Shown here: one piece after another, positions 9,875-38,182 of the stretch
Position numbering within the stretch: position 1 is the stretch's first letter
Layout of the letters: each line of letters starts with the position of its first letter
Assembly (NCBI RefSeq): GCF_044324875.1
Contig: NZ_CP172185.1
Source: Escherichia coli
GTDB lineage: Bacteria; Pseudomonadota; Gammaproteobacteria; Enterobacterales; Enterobacteriaceae
Length of the DNA: 64,000 bases
Reading direction: 5' to 3' (one strand)
Translations under genes and position numbers: made by a program
Notes under the pieces: model-generated
Databases searched by the model: none
The model's input: the letters and a program-made list of their open reading frames with translations, nothing else
What the model was told of the DNA's origin: nothing

Positions 9875-10486
9875 CTACTTACGTTGATCATCTACCGTGA
9901 CGCCTTGCGGCGGGGTGAAGGTAAATTTCGCTGCTTCCACAGCCCCATTTTGCTGGGATTTCAGTTGATAACTGCTGCGCTGATCGTCCTGCTCCACCGC
10001 GCTAAACTGATGGATCGTGCCATCACGTCCCACGTTAATGGTGAACTGCTTCAGATTGCCATTGCTGGCTTTCGGCGTCAGGACAAAGTCATCGCCATTC
10101 TGTTTGATATTGTACTGCTGCCAGTCGCTGGACTGGTTGCGGGCAATCAGCATAAACGGCGTATTACCGGTGGCATCTTTCAGCCAGGTTGCCGTAGCTT
10201 GCTCAACGAACGGGTTATAGAACCACAGTGTTTTACCGTCAGAAACCAGAATGCTTTCATCAGGTTGAGTCATATGCCAGTTGAATAAGTTTGGACGTTT
10301 CACCCACAGATCGCCCTGACCTTCCTGCACCGCCGCGCCGCTACCGTCAGTCACTTTTTGTGTGAAGCTGGCGTGGAAGCTGCTGACTTTATCCAGGCGG
10401 CTTTTCAGATCGCTTGCGGCATCAGCCCAAACGCTGCTTGCTACTAAGCTTGAGAGTAATGCACAGGTGATGGCAATTTTTTTCAT
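9875..10486 (-). CDS. lolA: Outer-membrane lipoprotein carrier protein LolA
   Basis: 203-aa periplasmic protein with signal peptide; recognised as LolA. Confidence 0.95.
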
Positions 10487-10597
10487 CATTATTCCTCAAA
10501 TTACGTCACTCCCGACCGGGAGTTCCCTCTACTCTCTATTCCAGGCTAATAATCAGCTTGAGGAAAGAAGAAAATACTGAATTTTCAGTTGATAGAG

Positions 10598-10644: not shown

Positions 10645-13600
10645 TTAGTCAAACGGCGGTGGGGCCAGCACTTCACGATTACCGTTGTGCCCCTGTTCGC
10701 TGACAATCCCCTGCGCTTCCATCTGTTCGATAATACGCGCTGCACGGTTATAACCAATGCGGAACTGACGCTGTACGCCAGAAATTGATGCTTTGCGTTT
10801 TTCAGTGACAAACTGCACCGCCTGATCGAACAACGGATCCAGTTCTTCAGCGCCATCGAAACCGCCCGCGCCACCTTCGCTTTCACTGTCGGAGGTGATG
10901 CCATCAACATACTGTGGGCGACCACGCGCTTTCCAGTCCTGCACCACGGCATGAACTTCCTGATCGCGAACAAAAGCACCATGAACACGTACCGGCAACG
11001 TGGAGTTCGGCCCAGAGTAAAGCATATCCCCCATACCCAGCAGTGATTCCGCGCCAGCCTGATCAAGAATGGTACGTGAGTCAATCTTACTGGATACGGT
11101 AAAGGCGATACGGGTCGGAATATTCGCTTTAATCAGACCAGTAATAACATCAACCGATGGACGCTGCGTTGCCAGTACGAGGTGGATACCCGCGGCACGG
11201 GCTTTTTGCGCAAGACGTGCTATAAGCTCTTCCACTTTTTTACCTACCGTCATCATCAGGTCGGCAAATTCGTCCACCAACACCACAATGTACGGTTCTT
11301 TTTTCAGCACCGGATGCTGGGCATCCATACTGTCACCCGGCTTCCAGTACGGGTCTGGAATCGGACGCATCATGCGATCGGCTTCAGCAATTTTTTCGTT
11401 ATAACCCGCCAGATTACGCACACCTAGGGCGGACATCAGCTTATAACGACGTTCCATTTCATTTACGCACCAGCGCAAAGCGTTGGCAGCATCTTTCATG
11501 TCGGTAACGACTTCCGTTAACAGATGCGGAATGCCTTCATAAACCGAAAGCTCCAGCATTTTCGGGTCGATCATGATGAAACGCACATCTTCTGGCTGTG
11601 CTTTATAAAGCATGCTCAGGATCATCGCGTTCACCCCGACAGACTTACCGGAACCGGTAGTCCCCGCAACCAACAAGTGCGGCATTTTCGCCAGATCGGC
11701 AACCACCGGCTCACCGGCGATATCTTTACCCAGCACCACGGTTAATGGCGACGGATTATCGCGGAATTTGGCGTTATCCAATACTTCGCGCAGATAAACG
11801 GTTTGTCGTTTTTTATTCGGTAACTCCAGACCTACATAGGGTTTGCCAGGAATAACTTCAACGACACGCACCGCCACCGTCGAAAGTGAACGGGCAAGGT
11901 CCCGTGACAAGTTAGAAATGCGCGCCGCTTTTACGCCCGGTGCCAGGTTAAGTTCAAAGCGAGTGATAACCGGCCCCGGAGAGTAATTGACGACATCGGC
12001 TTTAATACGGAAATCAGCCAGACGCGCTTCCACCAGACGCGCCATTTGTTCAAGCGCAAAGGTATCTACCGGCTCCACTTCGCTCGGCGGAGGTGTCAAC
12101 AAATCCAAAGAAGGCAGCGGCGTCGTCGGTTTATGCAACGGACGGCTGTCGCCATTACGCATCAACAGCGGATGAAGCAGGGTATCCTGCGGCTGTGGCG
12201 CAACTGGCTGTTGTGGCTGCTGATACTGCTGCTGCGGTGCAACCGGTTGTTGCGGCTGCTGTACAGGTTCAACAATTGGCGTAAACAACGGTTCGTGTGG
12301 ACCATCATCCAGCAACGCTTTCATTGGCGAAAATTCAAAATCATCCAGCGAGAACGGATTCGCCCCAGCCGGTTGTTCGCCGGAATAACGTTGTTGTTGA
12401 GTTTGCGCAAACTGACGAGCCAGTTCAGCCTCTGCCGCAGCATCTGCATCTTCTGCGTTTACGGGCACATCATGTTGATACTGTTCGCCATAGCGTTGCT
12501 GCTGTGTCTGGGCGAACTGACGTGCCAGTTCATCCTGCTGCATCGCATCGATTTCATCATCGTTGTACTGATCGCCAGAATCGTACTGATTGCGCTGGGC
12601 TTCACGGGCTTTTTCTTCTGCCGCACGCTGTGAGGGCAGCTTAATACCGTAAGACGCCAATTCACGACGAGTTGGCACGCGGATACGTTTCGGTCGTGGC
12701 AACTGCGGGCCAATCCCCTCTTTGACCTGCGGACGCGGTCCACCGCTATTTGCCAGACTGAAGACTGGCGCGGCAACGGTTGCGGCAGCCCCCGTCGCCA
12801 GTGTCGCTTTTTTCACGCCAGATGCCAGCGGAGAAACAGCGGCAGCGGCTTCTACTGGAGGTACTGCTGCAACAGAAGGTGCTTTCAGCGAAGATTTGAT
12901 CGGTTCTGGTTCTTTAACCGGTTCAGGAATCGGTTGATACCAGGCCGCAAGTTGTTCACGTTCACGGGCACGCTTCTCTTCCACTTCTTCAAAATAGTAA
13001 AGCGGCGGACGCGCGGGTTTTGTCTCTTCTACAACGGGCTCAGGCTCCACAACAGGGTGCTGTTCAACGGGTTGCGGCTGTTGGTACAACGGCTCCTGAG
13101 CGGCTGGCTGCTGATAAGTTTGCTCAGTCTGGTATGTAGACTGTGGAGCAAAAGTGGATTGCTGCTCTTCGGCTTGCCAGGCGTTACCTGCCGCCGTTTG
13201 TTCTGGCGCAGGGGCGTAATACGGCTGTTGCGCAGACTGTTCCGCCGCAGTTGCATAATACGGCTGCTGAACAGGTTGTTCCGCCGCAGGAGCGTAGTAA
13301 GGTTGTTGCACAGGTTGTTCCGCTGCTGGCGCATAATACGGCTGCTGTGGCTGTACAGGTTGTTGCAGCGGCTCATTATATTGCACTGCAGGCTGCGCAT
13401 ATTGTGGCTGCTGTGGGTAACCTTCCTGTGCAGGAGCAATAACCGGCTCTCCCGTTTGTGGCCCCGGTACAGGCTGCCAGGCTACTGTAGGTTGTGCAGG
13501 TGGAACATCAACAGAGGCAACAGGCGGCGTCTGAGTCACAGGTTCAACCGGCGCAGCCCAGCTTTGTGTCGCCGTGGTAGCAGCAGCTGCTACAGCAACA

Positions 13601-14556
13601 GGTTCGGTAATTGGCGCACCGTTTAATAATGGATCGTATTCGTCATATTCTGGCTGCGTTGCACGATTGCCCGAAAAGAGGACGTCGTCCGGGTCGGCAG
13701 CCACACCGCGTGCAGTGTAGGTAATCTCTTCTTCATCATCCATCCGCTTACCGGAGAACAACGCAGCATCTGTTTGCCGCCCCATCGGATTAATGAATTT
13801 TTCCGCCAACCGTTTACGACGCGCTAACGCGCCGCGAAGAATACGGGCACGGCGTGATTCATGCTGTTTGCCGTGATTTTCATCTTCATACTCTTCGTCA
13901 TCTTCATACTCATCTTCATCGACCCAGGTATCATCGCGACGTGTACGATTACTGGCGAAGGTGAGAATGTTTAAAATCCAGCCGCCGAGTTTTTCAGCAA
14001 TGGTCACCCATGACCAACCGGTGAACAGCGTCAGACCCGCAGCCCAAACGCAGAGCAGCGCAATAGTTCCCCCGCTACTGTGTAGCAGTGGTTGTAGCGT
14101 AGTGCTTAGTAAGCTGCCAATGACGCCACCGGAGGCAAAATACCAGATATCGTCAGCGTTGATTGCCGCCAGACCACAGGAGGTAAGGATGAGCGCCAAA
14201 ACGCCAATGATGCGTAGCGAAACGGCAAAATAATCAATGTATTCGTCGCTGGACTGATGACGCCAGGCAAACCAACAACCGCCGACAATAATGACGGGAA
14301 TGGTGTAAGCCATCACGCCAAAAATAAAGAACAGCGTATCTGCCAGCCACGCACCGGGCATCCCACCTAAATTATGGATAGGTTCATGCCAGGCCGTTTG
14401 CGACCAGCTGGGGTCCGAAGGGTTAAAGCTTAGTAAGGCAGCCATCAACCAGACGGCAAACAGGACAATAAGGATCAGCAACGCCTCCAGAAGGCGGCGG
14501 CCGCTACTTAACTTTGTCAATGTGACTTCTTTGTCTTCAGTGTATTCCTGGCTCAA
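10645..14556 (-). CDS. ftsK: DNA translocase FtsK
   Basis: 1303-aa ORF: N-terminal membrane domain, PQ-rich repetitive linker, C-terminal motor with Walker A (GTTGSGKS) and gamma domain. Confidence 0.95.
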
Positions 14557-14690: not shown

Positions 14691-15185
14691 TTAGCGCGTC
14701 TTAATAACCAGACGATTACTCTGCTTGACTTCTTCCATAACAACGTATGTCCGTGTGTCATTGACGCCAGGCAGACGCAGCAGGGTTTCCCCCAGCAACT
14801 TACGGTAAGCTGACATATCCGGCACGCGTGTTTTCAACAGGTAGTCGAAATCACCGGATACTAAATGACACTCCTGAATTTCTTCAAGTTTTTGTACAGC
14901 GGTATTGAATTGTTCAAACACATCCGGTGCGCCACGATTCAGAGTAATCTCAACGAATACCAGAAGTGATGCATCCAGATAATGGGGGTTCAGCAGCGCC
15001 GTATAGCCCTGAATAAACCCTTGTCTTTCCAGCCGACGCACACGCTCAAGGCACGGCGTTGGGGAAAGTCCCACACGTTTAGAAAGCTCGACGTTAGAAA
15101 TACGCCCATCCTTTTGCAACTCATTAAGAATGTTACGATCGATACGGTCGAGATCTTTGCCAGGGCGCTTCTTGCTATCTACCAT
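14691..15185 (-). CDS. lrp: Leucine-responsive regulatory protein
   Basis: 164-aa product starting MVDSKKRPGKDLDRIDRNIL...; the longer track ORF is an upstream extension. Confidence 0.95.
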   Translation of the reverse strand: MVDSKKRPGKDLDRIDRNILNELQKDGRISNVELSKRVGLSPTPCLERVRRLERQGFIQGYTALLNPHYLDASLLVFVEITLNRGAPDVFEQFNTAVQKLEEIQECHLVSGDFDYLLKTRVPDMSAYRKLLGETLLRLPGVNDTRTYVVMEEVKQSNRLVIKTR

Positions 15186-15612
15186 TATTATTGTCTCTCT
15201 GTATTCCTTCCCTACTCCTGTCTGACCCTGAAACATCACTGTTCAGAGTCGCTACCCGTCACGATAGACCGAAATCATGAAGATTCACGGCGCGCAATGC
15301 CTGGGTCTACGGTGAGAAGACCGTTGCCTTGTGGCAGCTATCGACATCACGAATGGCGTCTGTCCACGCCATACGTAGATTTCACTAGCACGGTAAACAT
15401 GGTATTTACATGCATGGTTATGCGCATATAAGAATACTGTTTTTTTTCTTCCTCGAATGTTTTCGCAAAACACCAGGGGATTGTCAAAGCAAAACATCGA
15501 TTTTTAGTACAACATGCCAGATATTCATTAACAGGGGCGTTTATTCATCATTTAATCGGCTTATAAAGCGGGAAATTTAAGTAGCAGAGGTGATAATGAC
15601 GGGAGAATTTGA

Positions 15613-21808: not shown

Positions 21809-21896
21809 GGTGAGGTGTCCGAGTGGCTGAAGGAGCACGCCTGGAAAGTGTGTATACGGCAACGTATCGGGGGTTCGAATCCCCCCCTCACCGCCA
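21809..21896 (+). tRNA. serW: tRNA-Ser (anticodon GGA)
   Basis: 88-nt sequence GGTGAGGTGTCCGAGTGGCTGAAGGAGCACGCCTGGAAAG...GGTTCGAATCCCCCCCTCACCGCCA with long variable arm and encoded CCA. Confidence 0.9.
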
Positions 21897-31956: not shown

Positions 31957-32998
31957 TATTAGCGGTAAGCTGTGCGTAGGCCAGCAAATGCGGGATTATT
32001 GCCCCTGTATATTCCGGCTCTCTGATAATGTGGTCGGATGTGTTGATTAAATAGTTTGTGCGAAAAATGCACCTGTAACCATCAGTTAACAACGGATATA
32101 CAGGGGGGACCATGAATGATAAGGGGGTGCCGTTTGATGTGCTCCTGCAAAAGCTGAATGCTGCACGCGCCGCAAGGGAACGTGAGCGCATGAGTAATAA
32201 CCCTGTCCCTCCTGAATTACCTCGCCCTGAACATTTTCCGCTTGAGGATTTCATCAGGGGACGAATCCGAACAAAACGATAACCGCCGCCGTGATATGAG
32301 GCATCACGACGCAATGCATTACAGGTGAGCACCATGAACAAATCCATATTATCCCCCACAGTTCTGGACGTAAACACAAAGCAGCGACAGATATTATTAC
32401 GCGCCGTCATTAAAGCCAGACACGAGAAATTAAACCAAATCTTAAGATAAGATACGCCGCTACCGCTGTAAGTCTTCATCAGAAACAGAAAACGCCAGAG
32501 CAGATGAGCACGGAGGTAACTCTTTATGAAAATAAACGAATCAGGGGAAATTACCGAAGCCAGCGTGGTACGCCAGCGGAGGCGGGAACGACGGGTACGG
32601 CCCCCCGCGCCATCCGATAATTTCCCGCTTGAGCGCTTCATCAGTGAACGGCCCCGCATACGCTGGAACGGCACAACCCCATACCCCGAGGAGAGACAGA
32701 CAAAAAACAAACAGCGATGATGAAATCTGGAGGCCAATACCATCACCCAGCCAGTCGGGGATTGCTGGCGGGCTTCCTGTTCGCTGGTGGCCCCGATGGT
32801 AATAACGCGTGGTTGTGCTGTGCTCAGGGCGATAAAACGCCAGATGTATTTATTCAGGTTGTGCGGGTCCCGCCCTTGCGGGTGTGTGGTATGATTTAAC
32901 ATAGCTACCTCGATACGCTTTCTATCGTTGGTGGTTAGAAGCCCCGTTACTGCTCCAACAGTGCGGGGTTTCGTCGTTTCTGCACCTTTCATCAACAA

Positions 32999-33051
32999 GG
33001 TGTTGAACACCAATTTAAGCCTAGGTGTTAAACACGCCAAGTGTTGAACAC
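32999..33051. promoter_or_regulatory. Three palindromic operator-like sites (GTGTTGAACAC, GTGTTAAACAC, GTGTTGAACAC)
   Basis: Three copies of an 11-bp palindrome spaced ~20 bp apart, ~50 bp upstream of the RHH-like small ORF. Confidence 0.55.
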
Positions 33052-33100
33052 TTATTTTTTTCCTGCATACTGCATTTGTTTTTTGTAAGGGGTACACAAC

Positions 33101-33279
33101 ATGGCGACAAAAGCAGTAAACGCAAAATCACAAACAGTTGCGGCAAGGGTTCCGCATGAAGTTATGAACAATGTTGAGGCGGTAAAAATGCCTGGTGAAA
33201 GTACAGGGCAGTTTGTAACAGCAGCATTAAAGCGAGAAGTTGAATACCGCCAGCGCCGCAAGGCCAAAGAATCAGAATA
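33101..33279 (+). CDS. Ribbon-helix-helix-like small DNA-binding protein (59 aa), divergent from the island operon
   Basis: MATKAVNAKSQTVAARVPHEVMNNVEAVKMPGESTGQFVTAALKREVE fits an RHH beta-alpha-alpha pattern; AAGGGG SD. Confidence 0.4.
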
Positions 33280-33328
33280 ATCACTATCAGCGCCGTGGTG
33301 TGAGGTACTGCGGCGCATTGTTTTAAAG

Positions 33329-33529
33329 GTGATAATTATGAATAACCAGGAACTACAAAATAAAGCATTATCAATTATCATGCGCCAGCGTGAGAAAACC
33401 CGCAGGGAAATAAATAAGGCATTAACCCGCACTGAAAATCTTAAAGTTCCTGATAAGTTCGCCCTTGATCCTTTTGTCGAGAAATACCCTCGGCGCTTAA
33501 AAGCAAACAAAAACCGCCCACCTGGCTGA
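33329..33529 (+). CDS. Hypothetical small basic protein (63-66 aa) downstream of the RHH gene
   Basis: ORF with AAGGTGA SD; possible two-gene module with the RHH gene. Confidence 0.3.
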   Translation: MIIMNNQELQNKALSIIMRQREKTRREINKALTRTENLKVPDKFALDPFVEKYPRRLKANKNRPPG

Positions 33530-33667
33530 CAATCCACCAGCAAGCCACCACACTGGACACATTGCCCACCAGCCAGCAAATCGCTATGATGTTCGGGCTT
33601 ATGTTTAGTGTTTTCCCATTGGCGACCGCCCCCGGTCGCCTTTGTTTTATGTGTCATATACTCCCCT

Positions 33668-33877
33668 TTACGCTGCCTTGCCTGAATTAATGCGATCCCG
33701 GCTTTTAACCCATTCCATAACCTCGGACAGCAGCCAACCTACAGAACGCCCACCAAGATTACGGCGAGACGGAAAGCTCCCTTTTTTCTCCAGTTCGTAG
33801 CGTGTAGTGCGACACACTCCAGTTAACTTACGACATTCATCCTCACGGATTACGCGATCTTCATTTATTTCACGCAT
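33668..33877 (-). CDS. alpA: AlpA/Vis-family phage transcriptional regulator (69 aa)
   Basis: MREINEDRVIREDECRKLTGVCRTTRYELEKKGSFPSRRNLGGRSVGWLLSEVMEWV matches the AlpA (P4 Vis-like) HTH family; the track ORF is extended upstream. Confidence 0.7.
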   Translation of the reverse strand: MREINEDRVIREDECRKLTGVCRTTRYELEKKGSFPSRRNLGGRSVGWLLSEVMEWVKSRDRINSGKAA

Positions 33878-34296
33878 ACAAAAACCTACATAAAAATTAC
33901 GTATATAAACTTTTCTCTTAGCTGTAGATATATGAGATCGGATATTACTTAGATTCTTTTTCACCTCTTAAATTAAAAACACAACCATGCTAAAGGCTTT
34001 GTTCGCTAAGGTTCGTAGAAGCTCGTTAGTGTTTAAAATCGTGTCACGAGTTTTTAAGCGACGCAACAAAAAATGTCGTCATTTGGCATGTCACCTGAAT
34101 TACCTCATTAAAAACAAATAGATAAACCATCAGATGTTGGAACAATCAAGAAACAGAGAATAAGAACTCAGAAGAAGACATTTCAATTTTTTTCGATAGT
34201 TGACACATATAAAGAGAAGATATTTGCAGATATTCCCCGATATTCTAAGATCTATTCACGGCTGTAATCTCTTAAAGAAAAAACAGCCGTAATTTG

Positions 34297-35535
34297 TCAA
34301 GAATTTTGGGGGTAAATTCGCGGGGTCATAACAACGATTTTTTCATCATTGTTCTGGAGAAGCTCGAGACGGTCTACCCATAGATTAAGAGCGTCACGCT
34401 TTGCATCGAGATAACGGGAGTGGTTATAGACGCGTTGCATTCCTGGCATCTGGTGGGCAGTAAGCTGTTCGACAATATGCGGATCCACGCCTAAATCGTT
34501 CAGCATGGTTGTAAATGTGTGCCGGATGTCGTGCAACGACCAGGGGGCTTGATTAATGCGTCTGTGTGCCGTTCTTCCGTACTCTGCTACGGATGATTGC
34601 CCTTTCAGTTCTCCAAGCAATAAGCCCGTGTGCCTGTTCTGCTCCACCAGCTTCATGACGAACGGCAAGATCGCTTCCGGTATTGGCCTGAATATTGCTA
34701 CCTTCGTTTTGCTGTGTTCTTTCGGCACAGTCCAGAGCATTTCTTTAAAATCCCATTCCCGAACCTCGGAGCGTCTTAGCTCAGTGGTACGGCATCCGAA
34801 GACAATCAGAAGGCGAATTAAAGCGCTGTAGTACGGCGGGAAAATTTTTTCATCCAGTGCGCGGAGTAGCTCGCCAAGCTCCTTGTTTGTTAGCACTCGC
34901 TCGCTTATTTCTGCTTTTTTTCCCACATCACCTACGACCATATCATCAAGAACGTTACTGACGGCGTAGCGACGTTTACGGCAGTACTTAAGCGCCTGTT
35001 TGCATACCTGCAACAAAAAGCCGGCTGATACCGGATTACGCTTAGCAAGCTGGTCAAAACAGGCCAGCCAGTGGCGTAGCTCGCATTTATCCAGCGGCAT
35101 AGCACCAATCTGGCTGATTATGTGCTTATTGATACGGCTTTTCAGTGATTCGTGGTCAGTGCGCTTTTCCTTCGCATACGACTCAAGCCAGTAAGTGAGC
35201 GCGTCCTTAACCGTCACGGGGGCTAACGCTTCCTGCACTGTGTGATTAAGCTCATGGCGTGGATTTTTCCCCTCCGCCAGCCAGGCGCGACACTGTGCCG
35301 CTTTTTCCCTGGCTGCTTTCAGGCTCAGATCGGGATAGTTGCCCAGTCTCAGGCGTTCCGGTGATACCTGCCTGCCAGTTCCGGCCCTGTAAGTGAAATA
35401 CCAGGTTAACAGGCCGCTGGTGGAATGTCTTACGCTAAGATTGCCACCGTCATTAAAAAAGGCGTTTTTTGTGGTTGGTGATCCGCTTAATTTTCGTAAA
35501 AGAGTGTCGCTAAGTCTATGAATTGCGCTGCTCAT
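34297..35535 (-). CDS. int: P4-type tyrosine integrase (412 aa)
   Basis: C-terminal catalytic region with HDIRHT and RVYNHSRY motifs; att repeat 25 bp upstream of the start. Confidence 0.85.
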   Translation of the reverse strand: MSSAIHRLSDTLLRKLSGSPTTKNAFFNDGGNLSVRHSTSGLLTWYFTYRAGTGRQVSPERLRLGNYPDLSLKAAREKAAQCRAWLAEGKNPRHELNHTVQEALAPVTVKDALTYWLESYAKEKRTDHESLKSRINKHIISQIGAMPLDKCELRHWLACFDQLAKRNPVSAGFLLQVCKQALKYCRKRRYAVSNVLDDMVVGDVGKKAEISERVLTNKELGELLRALDEKIFPPYYSALIRLLIVFGCRTTELRRSEVREWDFKEMLWTVPKEHSKTKVAIFRPIPEAILPFVMKLVEQNRHTGLLLGELKGQSSVAEYGRTAHRRINQAPWSLHDIRHTFTTMLNDLGVDPHIVEQLTAHQMPGMQRVYNHSRYLDAKRDALNLWVDRLELLQNNDEKIVVMTPRIYPQNS

Positions 35536-35559
35536 GTTTCGCGTTTCCGGTCATCAAAA

Positions 35560-35583
35560 TTAACTACACCATTGACTACACCG
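35560..35583 (+). repeat. Right att-type direct repeat (TTAACTACACCATTGACTACACCG)
   Basis: Matches 25219..25242 with one mismatch. Confidence 0.7.
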
Positions 35584-35938
35584 TGCATCGTACAAGGGCA
35601 AACCGTGACGAACAAGAGCGAACAAGTAAAACAAAATTTTCCTTTATAATCATAGCGATGAATGCACACAAAACACTACCACGAACACCCGCGAACACTA
35701 GATGATAAATAACTATCATCTATCGTTGGCATCAGGACATCTGTCACATTCCTGTCAATAGCGTTAACTGCTTCAAATTTTTGATTCATACCTGCCCCCT
35801 GGCCCCTGTCAAATGCTTGACGGCTCGCCCTAATTCTCTAAATTGTATTTCTAGAGTTGGCGAGGTTTTGAACAGCCCCCTCTCTGACCCCGGTTTATTC
35901 CATCTTACTTGTATAAGATTTGCGAAGGATGTCGAAGC

Positions 35939-36235: not shown

Positions 36236-38182
36236 TTACTCTCGTGCCAGAGCATCTACTGGATCCAGTCGTGCCGCATTTCGTGCGGGTAACCAGCCAA
36301 ATAAAATCCCGGTGACCGTCGAGCAGAGAAACGCCAGCAGCAGCGCCAACGGTGAAAAACCAATCTCCCAGCCGGGTAAGAAAAGCTGTAAGGTGAAAGC
36401 AATTAACAATGACAGTGTTATTCCCAACGCGCCACCGACCAGGCAAACCAGTACGGCTTCGATCAGGAACTGTTGCAAAACATCGCTTGCTCGCGCACCT
36501 ACAGCCATGCGAATGCCAATTTCCCGCGTCCGCTCGGTCACTGACACCAGCATAATATTCATTACACCAATACCGCCCACCACCAGCGAAATCACCGCCA
36601 CCAGCGTCAGAAACAGTTGTAAAGTACGTGTGGTCTTTTCAACGGTTTTCAAGACGCCGTCCATGTTCCAGGTAAAGAAATCCTTTTTTCCGTGGCGCAG
36701 TGAAAGTAAACGCATGAGTTGCTGTTCCGCCTCAGCGCTGTCAAATCCTTCTTTCACCCTGACAGTAATGGAGTTCAGCCACGACTGGCCCATAACTCGC
36801 CCGGACATCGTGCTGTAAGGTAGCCAGACACGCAGCACTTTACTGCTACCAAACATCGACTGTTTTTCTTCCGCCACACCAATGACTCTGGCGGGCATAT
36901 TGCCGACCAGAATCACCTCGCCAACCACATCTGCTTTATGGGGGAAAAGCTGGCGGCGAGTATTACTGTCGAGAACTACGACCTGCGCACGACCGTTCAG
37001 CTGCTCCTGATTAAAGGTGTTCCCTTCACTGAAGGTCATGCCATAGACATTAAAATAATCGCCGCTCACGCCATTGGCACTGGCAGCCACATCAACATTG
37101 TTATAACGCAGGCGCAGGTTTTGCGAGACGGCAGGTGTGGCTGAGGCGACCCACGGTTGTTTTTGGATGGCGATTAAGTCATCGTACTTCAGCGCCTGCT
37201 GATATTGCGGATCGTCATCGCCAAAATCTTTCCCGGGATAGACATCAATAGTATTCGTACCAATAGAACGAATATCCGCCAGCACCATTTGTTTGGCGGC
37301 GTCACCCACCACGACAATGGAAACCACCGACGCAATACCGATAATAATCCCCAGCATGGTCAGTAAAGTACGCATTTTATTCGCTGCCAGCGCCCGCCAT
37401 GCCATCGTCAGCGCCTCGTTAAAACCGCTGACAAACTGCCGCCAGCCAGACGCCGTGTTGACAGCAGGTTCCGTCCCGCCAGCAACATTCACTTTTTCAA
37501 TGGCGGGAGGATTGCGCACAATTTCGCTGTCGCGAATTTCGATCACCCGCTCGGCCTGAGCAGCGACCTGCGGATCGTGGGTGACGATAATCACCGTATG
37601 CCCGCGATCGCGCAGCTGATGCAGGATCGCCATCACCTCTTCGCCAGAATGGCTGTCCAGTGCGCCGGTCGGTTCATCGGCAAGAATTACCTGACCGCCG
37701 TTCATCAATGCCCGCGCGATGCTGACGCGCTGTTGCTGACCACCCGAAAGCTGTGCCGGATAATACTCTGTACGGTCTTCCAGCCCCAGTCGTTGCAGCA
37801 ACTCCTGGGCGCGAAGCAGCCGCTGTTTCCGCTCAAGACCGGCATAGACGGCGGGTACTTCAACGTTCTGCTCGGCGGTTAAATGCGAAAGCAAATGGTA
37901 ACGCTGGAAAATAAAGCCGAAATGCTCGCGGCGCAGTTGCGCCAGCGCATCGGCGTCCAGTGTGGCAACATCCTGACCGGCGACGCGATAGGTGCCGCTG
38001 GTGGCCTTATCCAGGCAGCCGAGAATATTCATCAGGGTCGATTTGCCGGAACCCGAAGCGCCGACAATCGCCACCATCTCACCAGCATAAATATCGAGGG
38101 TGATGCCCTTCAGCACCTCAACCTGCTCATCACCGGCAGGATAGCTGCGACGAATATCCTTTAATTCGAGCAAGGGCGTCAT
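36236..38182 (-). CDS. macB: Macrolide export ABC transporter MacB
   Basis: 648 aa; N-terminal NBD (GASGSGKST) and C-terminal FtsX-like permease. Confidence 0.95.

Follow-up and report, generated by a model that had tools for sequence, protein, structure and literature searches.

Two in-frame 39-nt minisatellites in the linker of Escherichia coli ftsK and the length of a 1303-residue FtsK allele

The ftsK gene and the repeats of its linker

In the window, by which the whole stretch of 64,000 nucleotides that was analysed is meant, ftsK is flanked by lrp (14691-15239, minus strand) and lolA (9875-10489, minus strand). Nine annotated records of E. coli have the same order lrp-ftsK-lolA-rarA as the window, and nine RefSeq records of E. 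coli give the same TTG start for ftsK. The DNA of the gene was 97-99% identical to the annotated ftsK in 5,425 of the 5,426 complete E. coli genomes. The closest complete genomes showed 98.9-99.3% identity across 24 kb, so that the source strain itself is not among them. Exactly this 1303-aa protein is encoded on 241 contigs, where it is recorded as E. coli FtsK. A Pfam search of the translation revealed the N-terminal four-helix membrane domain (PF13491 FtsK_4TM, aa 20-191, E = 5e-42), the C-terminal alpha domain (PF17854 FtsK_alpha, aa 814-914), the P-loop motor (PF01580 FtsK_SpoIIIE, aa 922-1135) and the KOPS-reading gamma domain (PF09397 FtsK_gamma, aa 1238-1298). The Walker A motif GTTGSGKS was also seen. 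By its domains and its position the protein is an FtsK/SpoIIIE DNA translocase, the enterobacterial FtsK. The gene is a mosaic that is similar to SCU-109 at its 5' and 3' parts and to other lineages in its middle part. This indicates that recombination does move segments of ftsK.

The membrane domain and the alpha domain are separated by a long linker (aa 192-813), in which the same Pfam search found no domain. The linker consists of 13% P, 12.5% Q and 14% A, and the P and Q residues together make up 42% of a first tandem array (array A) and 77% of a second one (array B). The following features were defined, all of them on the minus strand:

10645..14556, minus strand: ftsK, DNA translocase FtsK, TTG start, 1303 aa, taken from the list of open reading frames
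12118..13983, minus strand: linker from the membrane domain to the alpha domain, aa 192-813, with Pfam boundaries
13348-13368, minus strand: partial leader unit LQQPVQP before array A
13192..13347, minus strand: array A (MLVA locus ms06), four 39-nt units of 13 aa each, aa 404-455
12385..12531, minus strand: third repeat, a 35-aa/105-nt unit (aa 676-710) with a partial copy of 14 aa behind it (aa 711-724)
12184..12261, minus strand: array B (MLVA locus ms07, also CVN001), two 39-nt units of 13 aa each, aa 766-791

Array B ends 22 aa ahead of the FtsK alpha domain. With Tandem Repeats Finder a period of 39 was obtained for array A (13198-13347, 3.8 copies, score 168-209) as well as for array B (12187-12261, 1.9 copies, score 108); besides, the array coordinates were set in codon register by dissection of the units. 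At a period of 13 residues, 33 of 39 positions were identical in array A and 11 of 13 in array B. When the amino acids of the linker were shuffled 2000 times, neither value was reached at any period from 5 to 40 (the maxima were 15 and 9), which implies that the repeats are real. The sequence-only reading of this DNA had placed a PQ-rich repeat tract at 12100-13500. This range does span both arrays, but the units that were described for it are those of the YYAPAAEQ array only, i.e. array A. The motif of the third repeat was found at aa 676 and at aa 711. It is rarely polymorphic, one or two extra full copies being present in the public E. coli FtsK proteins P0005, P0009 and P0003.

At the DNA level, identity among the units of array A is 72-82%, and the differences between them are for the most part synonymous; units 1 and 2 even encode the same peptide, with 9 synonymous and no non-synonymous differences. 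This suggests that the units are old duplications of which the peptide would be under purifying selection, and it makes strict neutrality of the sequence, as distinct from the count, doubtful. The two units of array B in the window are the two most divergent ones, namely the first and the last of the array. The longest exact in-register match between units is 8 nt in array B of the window, 17 nt in its array A and 28-50 nt in long B alleles.

The FtsK linker was described as unstructured and proline/glutamine-rich, with a length and a composition that differ among species (PMC5357621). The same review attributes filamentation to linker mutations and mentions that parts of the linker contact FtsQ, FtsL, FtsI and FtsZ (Bigot 2004, Dubarry 2010, via PMC5357621). 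The K-12 linker (FtsK-L; Bigot et al., 2004; Dubarry et al., 2010) is also PQ-rich, unstructured and about 620-650 aa long, and the order of the domains is the same, with the 4TM domain before it and the alpha-beta-gamma motor after it. K-12 FtsK is an A2/B6 protein (two A and six B units, 1329 aa), whereas the window allele is A4/B2 (1303 aa). In the two studies of the K-12 linker the variants reportedly were engineered deletions and not natural repeat alleles. The linker with its arrays is predicted to be a disordered PQ-rich tether of the FtsK DNA pump to the septal membrane anchor.

Allele lengths and copy numbers in E. coli

The sequence-only reading had given a length of about 1329 aa for FtsK of K-12 and had put the difference from the 1303 aa found here down to repeat-number variation in the linker. 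This length was confirmed by the ftsK gene of the laboratory strain ME8067, which has 3990 nt (1329 aa), and by a review that gives about 1329 aa (PMC5357621). Strains labelled K-12, C600 and TOP10 share the array sizes of ME8067. When the alignment and the count of units that had been proposed were carried out, neither the length nor the repeat count was identical to that of the reference. Array A has four units in the window versus two in K-12 (O157:H7 also has two), and array B has two units versus six. The net change relative to K-12 is +26 - 52 = -26 aa. Repeat-number variation in the linker thus explains the whole gap between 1303 and 1329 aa. The tract that had been named is, however, not the one behind the shortfall. 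Array A is expanded, and the whole deficit lies in array B, which had not been mentioned.

Among 10 aligned E. coli alleles the differences in length were confined to arrays A and B and were multiples of 13 aa. The compared alleles combine two to four A units with two to eight B units, and their total length ranges from 1290 to 1381 aa. Two to twelve B units were found among the 120 closest distinct public proteins, of which 117 have four A units. Array A accordingly evolves more slowly than array B. A length of 1329 aa is reached in two ways, as A2/B6 in K-12 and as A4/B4 in relatives of the window allele. The total length of FtsK is homoplasic and therefore a poor marker. Reliance on gene length or on a single array misleads, because the arrays vary independently and their changes can cancel out. 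For annotation pipelines it follows that an E. coli FtsK of 1290-1433 aa is normal allelic variation and not an error.

Copy numbers in the population were determined in systematic samples of the 5,426 complete E. coli genomes, the array sizes being read from the BLAST spans of synthetic queries that contained the flanks only. Whole-gene megablast was abandoned for allele lengths, since about one third of the genomes gave split matches with pieces that overlapped inside the repeats. Copy numbers from short-read draft assemblies, such as those among the public proteins, could be distorted by repeat collapse. In 60 sampled genomes array A had two units in 20, three in 21 and four in 19. Array B mostly had six or seven units in the 59 informative rows, and five, eight and nine were also found; about seven rows gave a non-integer size, which still corresponded to a change of whole codons. 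A two-unit array B was absent from these 59 genomes. A targeted search retrieved it from at least seven of the 5,426 complete-genome records, i.e. two O145:H28 outbreak isolates, four THO-008-like strains and one O18ac:H14 strain.

Typing loci and counterparts in other Enterobacteriaceae

The MLVA loci CVN001, ms06 and ms07 were presumed to lie in ftsK, and this placement was then tested by mapping of the primers. For ms06 and ms07 the primers and a 39 bp repeat are published, and ms07 is the same locus as CVN001 (Gorge et al. panel; PMC4553163 Table 1). The sites in the window are:

13079..13457, minus strand: ms06 amplicon, predicted 379 bp, both primers exact with a single match each
13438-13457, minus strand: ms06 forward primer site
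13079-13098, plus strand: ms06 reverse primer site
12091..12521, minus strand: ms07/CVN001 amplicon, predicted 431 bp
12502-12521: ms07 forward primer site, exact
12091-12110: ms07 reverse primer site, 3 mismatches in this strain

The ms06 primers of the Gorge et al. panel flank array A, which has the same 39 bp unit, and there is no difference of substance. The ms07/CVN001 primers (Lindstedt et al. generic E. coli MLVA; Gorge et al. Shigella/E. coli panel) flank array B, again with a 39 bp unit. The ms07 reverse site sits where the protein alignment predicts it (SLDLLTP). A reverse-primer sequence that fits this lineage reads, in the sense orientation, CTTTGGATTTGTTGACACCT. In this lineage the ms07 reverse primer could amplify less well owing to its three mismatches, of which users of MLVA should be aware. 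Array A is ms06 and array B is ms07/CVN001. The feature was already known and the arrays are long-established typing markers, which bears out the proposal of the sequence-only reading that repeat number at this site marks strains.

The published ms06 alleles 2, 3 and 4 correspond to the three states found in complete genomes, of which this strain has allele 4; the published ranges for ms07/CVN001 match the unit counts in genomes (2-12), of which this strain has the rare minimal allele. For ms07/CVN001 the published allele numbers derive from fragment sizes and are possibly offset from the unit counts given here. In S. sonnei ms06 alleles 2-4 and ms07 alleles 2-8 were reported (PMC4553163). Swedish ESBL E. 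coli had CVN001 alleles 4-8, with alleles 5 and 6 at 40% each (PMC5217547), and one ST131 isolate, with CVN001 = 2 in place of the usual 6, differed at this single locus (PMC3407997). The lineages in which a collapse to two units was encountered are that of the window, part of O145:H28, the THO-008-like strains, O18ac:H14 and the ST131 variant.

The occurrence of the arrays outside E. coli was examined by a pattern scan in which each species was represented by one genome. It yielded 120 loci, mostly from Enterobacteriaceae, 94 of which had enough upstream sequence. In 24 of these 94 loci at least three PQ-rich units stand in tandem shortly ahead of the alpha domain. The array periods ranged from 12 to 17 aa across species, 13 being the commonest. 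The unit of array B is common to Escherichia, Salmonella and Citrobacter, and array A is confined to Escherichia species. At the array-B position many Enterobacteriaceae have no array or one with another period (12-17 aa); in Klebsiella and Enterobacter the PQ sequence is degenerate and forms no regular array, and in S. enterica arizonae about 4.5 units of 13 aa are present there.

The Salmonella counterpart is STTR7, or SENTR2, a 39-bp VNTR in ftsK that is used for MLVA and has 9.3 copies in S. Enteritidis (PMC2430564). It shares the 39 bp unit and its location in ftsK with array B, but Salmonella lacks array A with its YYAP units. A natural two-repeat indel of 84 bp in the linker of S. Enteritidis was swapped between strains and left the one phenotype that was assayed unchanged (PMC6137255). 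The 84 bp of this indel are not a multiple of 39.

Change of copy number and its meaning for FtsK

Two, three, five, six or seven B units occur in public proteins that are identical over the remaining 1,276 residues. At the DNA level, the O145:H28 strains RM12761 (B2) and RM13514 (B8) are 1 nt apart in the 3,831 nt outside array B and differ by 234 nt (6 units) inside it. As judged from these comparisons, array B demonstrably changes faster than point mutations accumulate. DNA dissection of the units revealed that the two A units of K-12 equal the first and the fourth unit of the A4 alleles. THO-008 has an A unit that is a hybrid between units 1 and 2, and strain 873.10 has one between units 3 and 4. 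These two strains also have B2 alleles, with hybrid B units that differ between them. In the B2 alleles of the window and of O145:H28 RM12761 exactly the first and the last unit were kept. These differing make-ups imply that B2 arose at least three times. A recent common origin of the window B2 and the RM12761 B2 was considered and rejected, because the two genes differ at 81 sites despite identical array B DNA; 5 of the 81 sites lie within 150 nt downstream of array B.

Whole-unit variants, in-register breakpoints inside units and hybrid units were thus all observed, as is characteristic of a minisatellite. Such changes in copy number would be explained by replication slippage or unequal exchange. 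Slippage, RecA-dependent unequal exchange and import by homologous recombination are indistinguishable by sequence alone. Slipped-strand deletion is known to depend strongly on the homology of the repeats. As the in-register repeat in B2 is exact over only 8 nt, the contracted allele is probably stable by comparison. The suggestion of a slippage hotspot therefore fits long array-B alleles, with their exact matches of 28-50 nt, but fits the alleles of this strain poorly, in which the exact match in array B is 8 nt and the A units are 72-82% identical.

It is highly probable that the arrays are two ordinary in-frame minisatellites with a 39-nt unit (13 aa) in a disordered PQ-rich linker, which would change by slippage or unequal exchange, be tolerated and for that reason serve as typing markers. 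The repeats would misalign in register during replication slippage or unequal sister-strand exchange, and each event would add or remove whole 13-aa modules, leaving the reading frame and the folded domains undisturbed. If the linker tolerates the change in length, the variants would persist and drift, and it is this persisting drift that would make the arrays useful for typing. The A4/B2 allele would then have gained two A units and lost four B units relative to A2/B6 of K-12 to arrive at 1303 instead of 1329 aa.

That the two-unit array B of the window is an assembly artefact, in which a longer array was collapsed by a short-read assembler, is very improbable. The exact 1303-aa protein is present on the 241 contigs mentioned above, which come from several pipelines (NCBI, ENA, Logan) and of which some exceed 1 Mb, B2 was found in at least seven RefSeq complete-genome records, and PCR fragment sizing reports ms07/CVN001 allele 2 in S. 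sonnei and ST131 E. coli. It is true that long B arrays (8-12 units, 312-468 nt) exceed the typical short-read length, that their units have exact in-register matches of 28-50 nt and that a collapse would likewise leave exactly the first and the last unit, as in B2. However, a genuine B2 array of 78 nt should fit one read and be easy to assemble correctly. There is next to no chance that the arrays form a contingency (phase-variable) locus at which gain or loss of repeats switches FtsK or an overlapping gene on and off. A hypermutable tandem repeat does sit inside the coding region, and long antisense open reading frames overlap the arrays (12046-12633 and 12934-13626, plus strand). Yet the unit of 39 nt equals 13 codons, every allele examined was in frame and of full length, and cell division requires the N-terminal part of ftsK. 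Phase variation was rejected since the length of the unit is divisible by three; what the arrays bring about instead is modulation of length. The antisense frames were likewise dismissed, as artefacts of a composition in which CAG/CCG-rich sense codons leave the opposite strand free of stops. None of the nine E. coli records has an annotated gene at their positions.

Another alternative is that copy number is under selection. The array B count would then act as a dial for the length of the tether from anchor to pump on which selection could work, the arrays would set its reach or stiffness, and the recurrent contraction to two units would be adaptive instead of the outcome of drift. The independent origin of B2 on at least three occasions is consistent with this, as are the hundreds of assemblies in the lineage of the window allele, the conservation of the unit peptides while synonymous sites diverge, and the recurrence of PQ-rich tandem units at the array-B position in 24 of the 94 species sampled. 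The filamentation of linker mutants and the contacts of the linker with FtsQ, FtsL, FtsI and FtsZ, as summarised in PMC5357621, point in the same direction. On the other hand, two to twelve B units occur on near-identical backgrounds with no sign of a preferred value beyond 6-7, and Klebsiella, Enterobacter and many other genera do without a regular array. Moreover, the sole allele swap on record, that in Salmonella, gave no phenotype, egg-white survival being the one assay (PMC6137255). Selection on the count is therefore considered unlikely. If it were nevertheless to operate, collapse of array B could, for example, affect when or how efficiently chromosome dimers are resolved, or how stable the divisome is.

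The interpretation as ordinary, tolerated minisatellites suggests that the copy number is close to neutral. A conserved composition combined with turnover of the sequence and number of the units is what would be expected of a tolerant spacer. The practical value of this is small. The ftsK arrays are legacy typing markers, and a surprising effect of linker length is not hinted at by these results. The natural series from B2 to B12 on identical backgrounds is ready material to ask whether the length of the linker matters.

Mosaic structure of the ftsK allele

The ftsK allele of the window (10645-14556) is, as judged from sequence comparison with other annotated alleles, a mosaic. Upstream (5') of array A, the 39-nt repeat of MLVA locus ms06, it differed from the SCU-109 allele at 3 of 1188 positions, and 3' of array B, the 39-nt repeat of locus ms07/CVN001, at 6 of 1539. 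The segment between the arrays was further from SCU-109 (16/924 differences) than from O145:H28 and THO-008 (7-8/924). Because the parts outside the arrays are almost identical to SCU-109 and the part between them is nearer to O145:H28 and THO-008, this suggests that intragenic recombination took place in the past.

Further repeats, antisense frames and unusual FtsK alleles

The linker carries a third repeat, and each array is overlapped by an open reading frame on the opposite strand:

12385-12531, minus strand: third linker repeat, a 35-aa unit followed by a partial copy (FtsK aa 676-724)
12046-12633, plus strand: antisense ORF of 195 aa overlapping array B
12934-13626, plus strand: antisense ORF of 230 aa overlapping array A

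Rare public E. coli FtsK alleles contain one or two additional full copies of the 35-aa unit, i.e. P0005 and P0009 (1403 aa each) and P0003 (1412 aa). At the antisense ORFs no gene was annotated in the E. coli records compared; most likely these frames simply result from the richness of the sense strand in CAG/CCG codons. In the ftsK locus of Escherichia albertii NBRC 107761 (L016), array B is reduced to about two units immediately before the FtsK alpha domain. A stretch of 11 alanines (VQQQPAAAAAAAAAAAPQPQY...) precedes them, so that this position is filled by a low-complexity sequence of another kind. In another public E. coli protein, P0002 (1461 aa), an insertion of 93 aa duplicates part of the membrane domain; this reflects either a misassembly or a genuine tandem duplication in a domain that is essential.

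The neighbourhood of infA and clpS

An integrated element of about 10 kb was observed at about 26000-35600, flanked by clpS and cspD/macB. Downstream of infA lies a single tRNA gene, directly after which an RtT sRNA repeat is annotated in the matching TUM9803 stretch.

21809-21896, plus strand: tRNA-Ser (GGA), serW position
about 24740-25060: clpS, one border of the element
29429-31177, minus strand: DNA primase family protein
31670-33097, minus strand: Icd-like division inhibitor
34297-35535, minus strand: tyrosine integrase
36236-38182: cspD/macB, the other border

Based on the annotation of the near-identical TUM9803 stretch, the element also encodes a terminase small subunit, a ProQ/FinO protein, a PerC regulator and SSB. 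It looks like a phage satellite island, P4-like or PICI-type. The 24.4-kb query containing it was covered for at least 80% in only 39 of 5,425 genomes, and in some genomes type I-F CRISPR-Cas genes occupy the clpS-cspD/macB neighbourhood instead.

The ms07/CVN001 reverse primer site

The published ms07/CVN001 reverse primer has three mismatches with the window strain at 12091-12110, one of them three bases from the primer 3' end. In the 150 nt that directly follow array B, 3-7 positions distinguish the window allele from each of the nine comparison alleles. Such downstream divergence might weaken the PCR typing of this lineage at ms07/CVN001.
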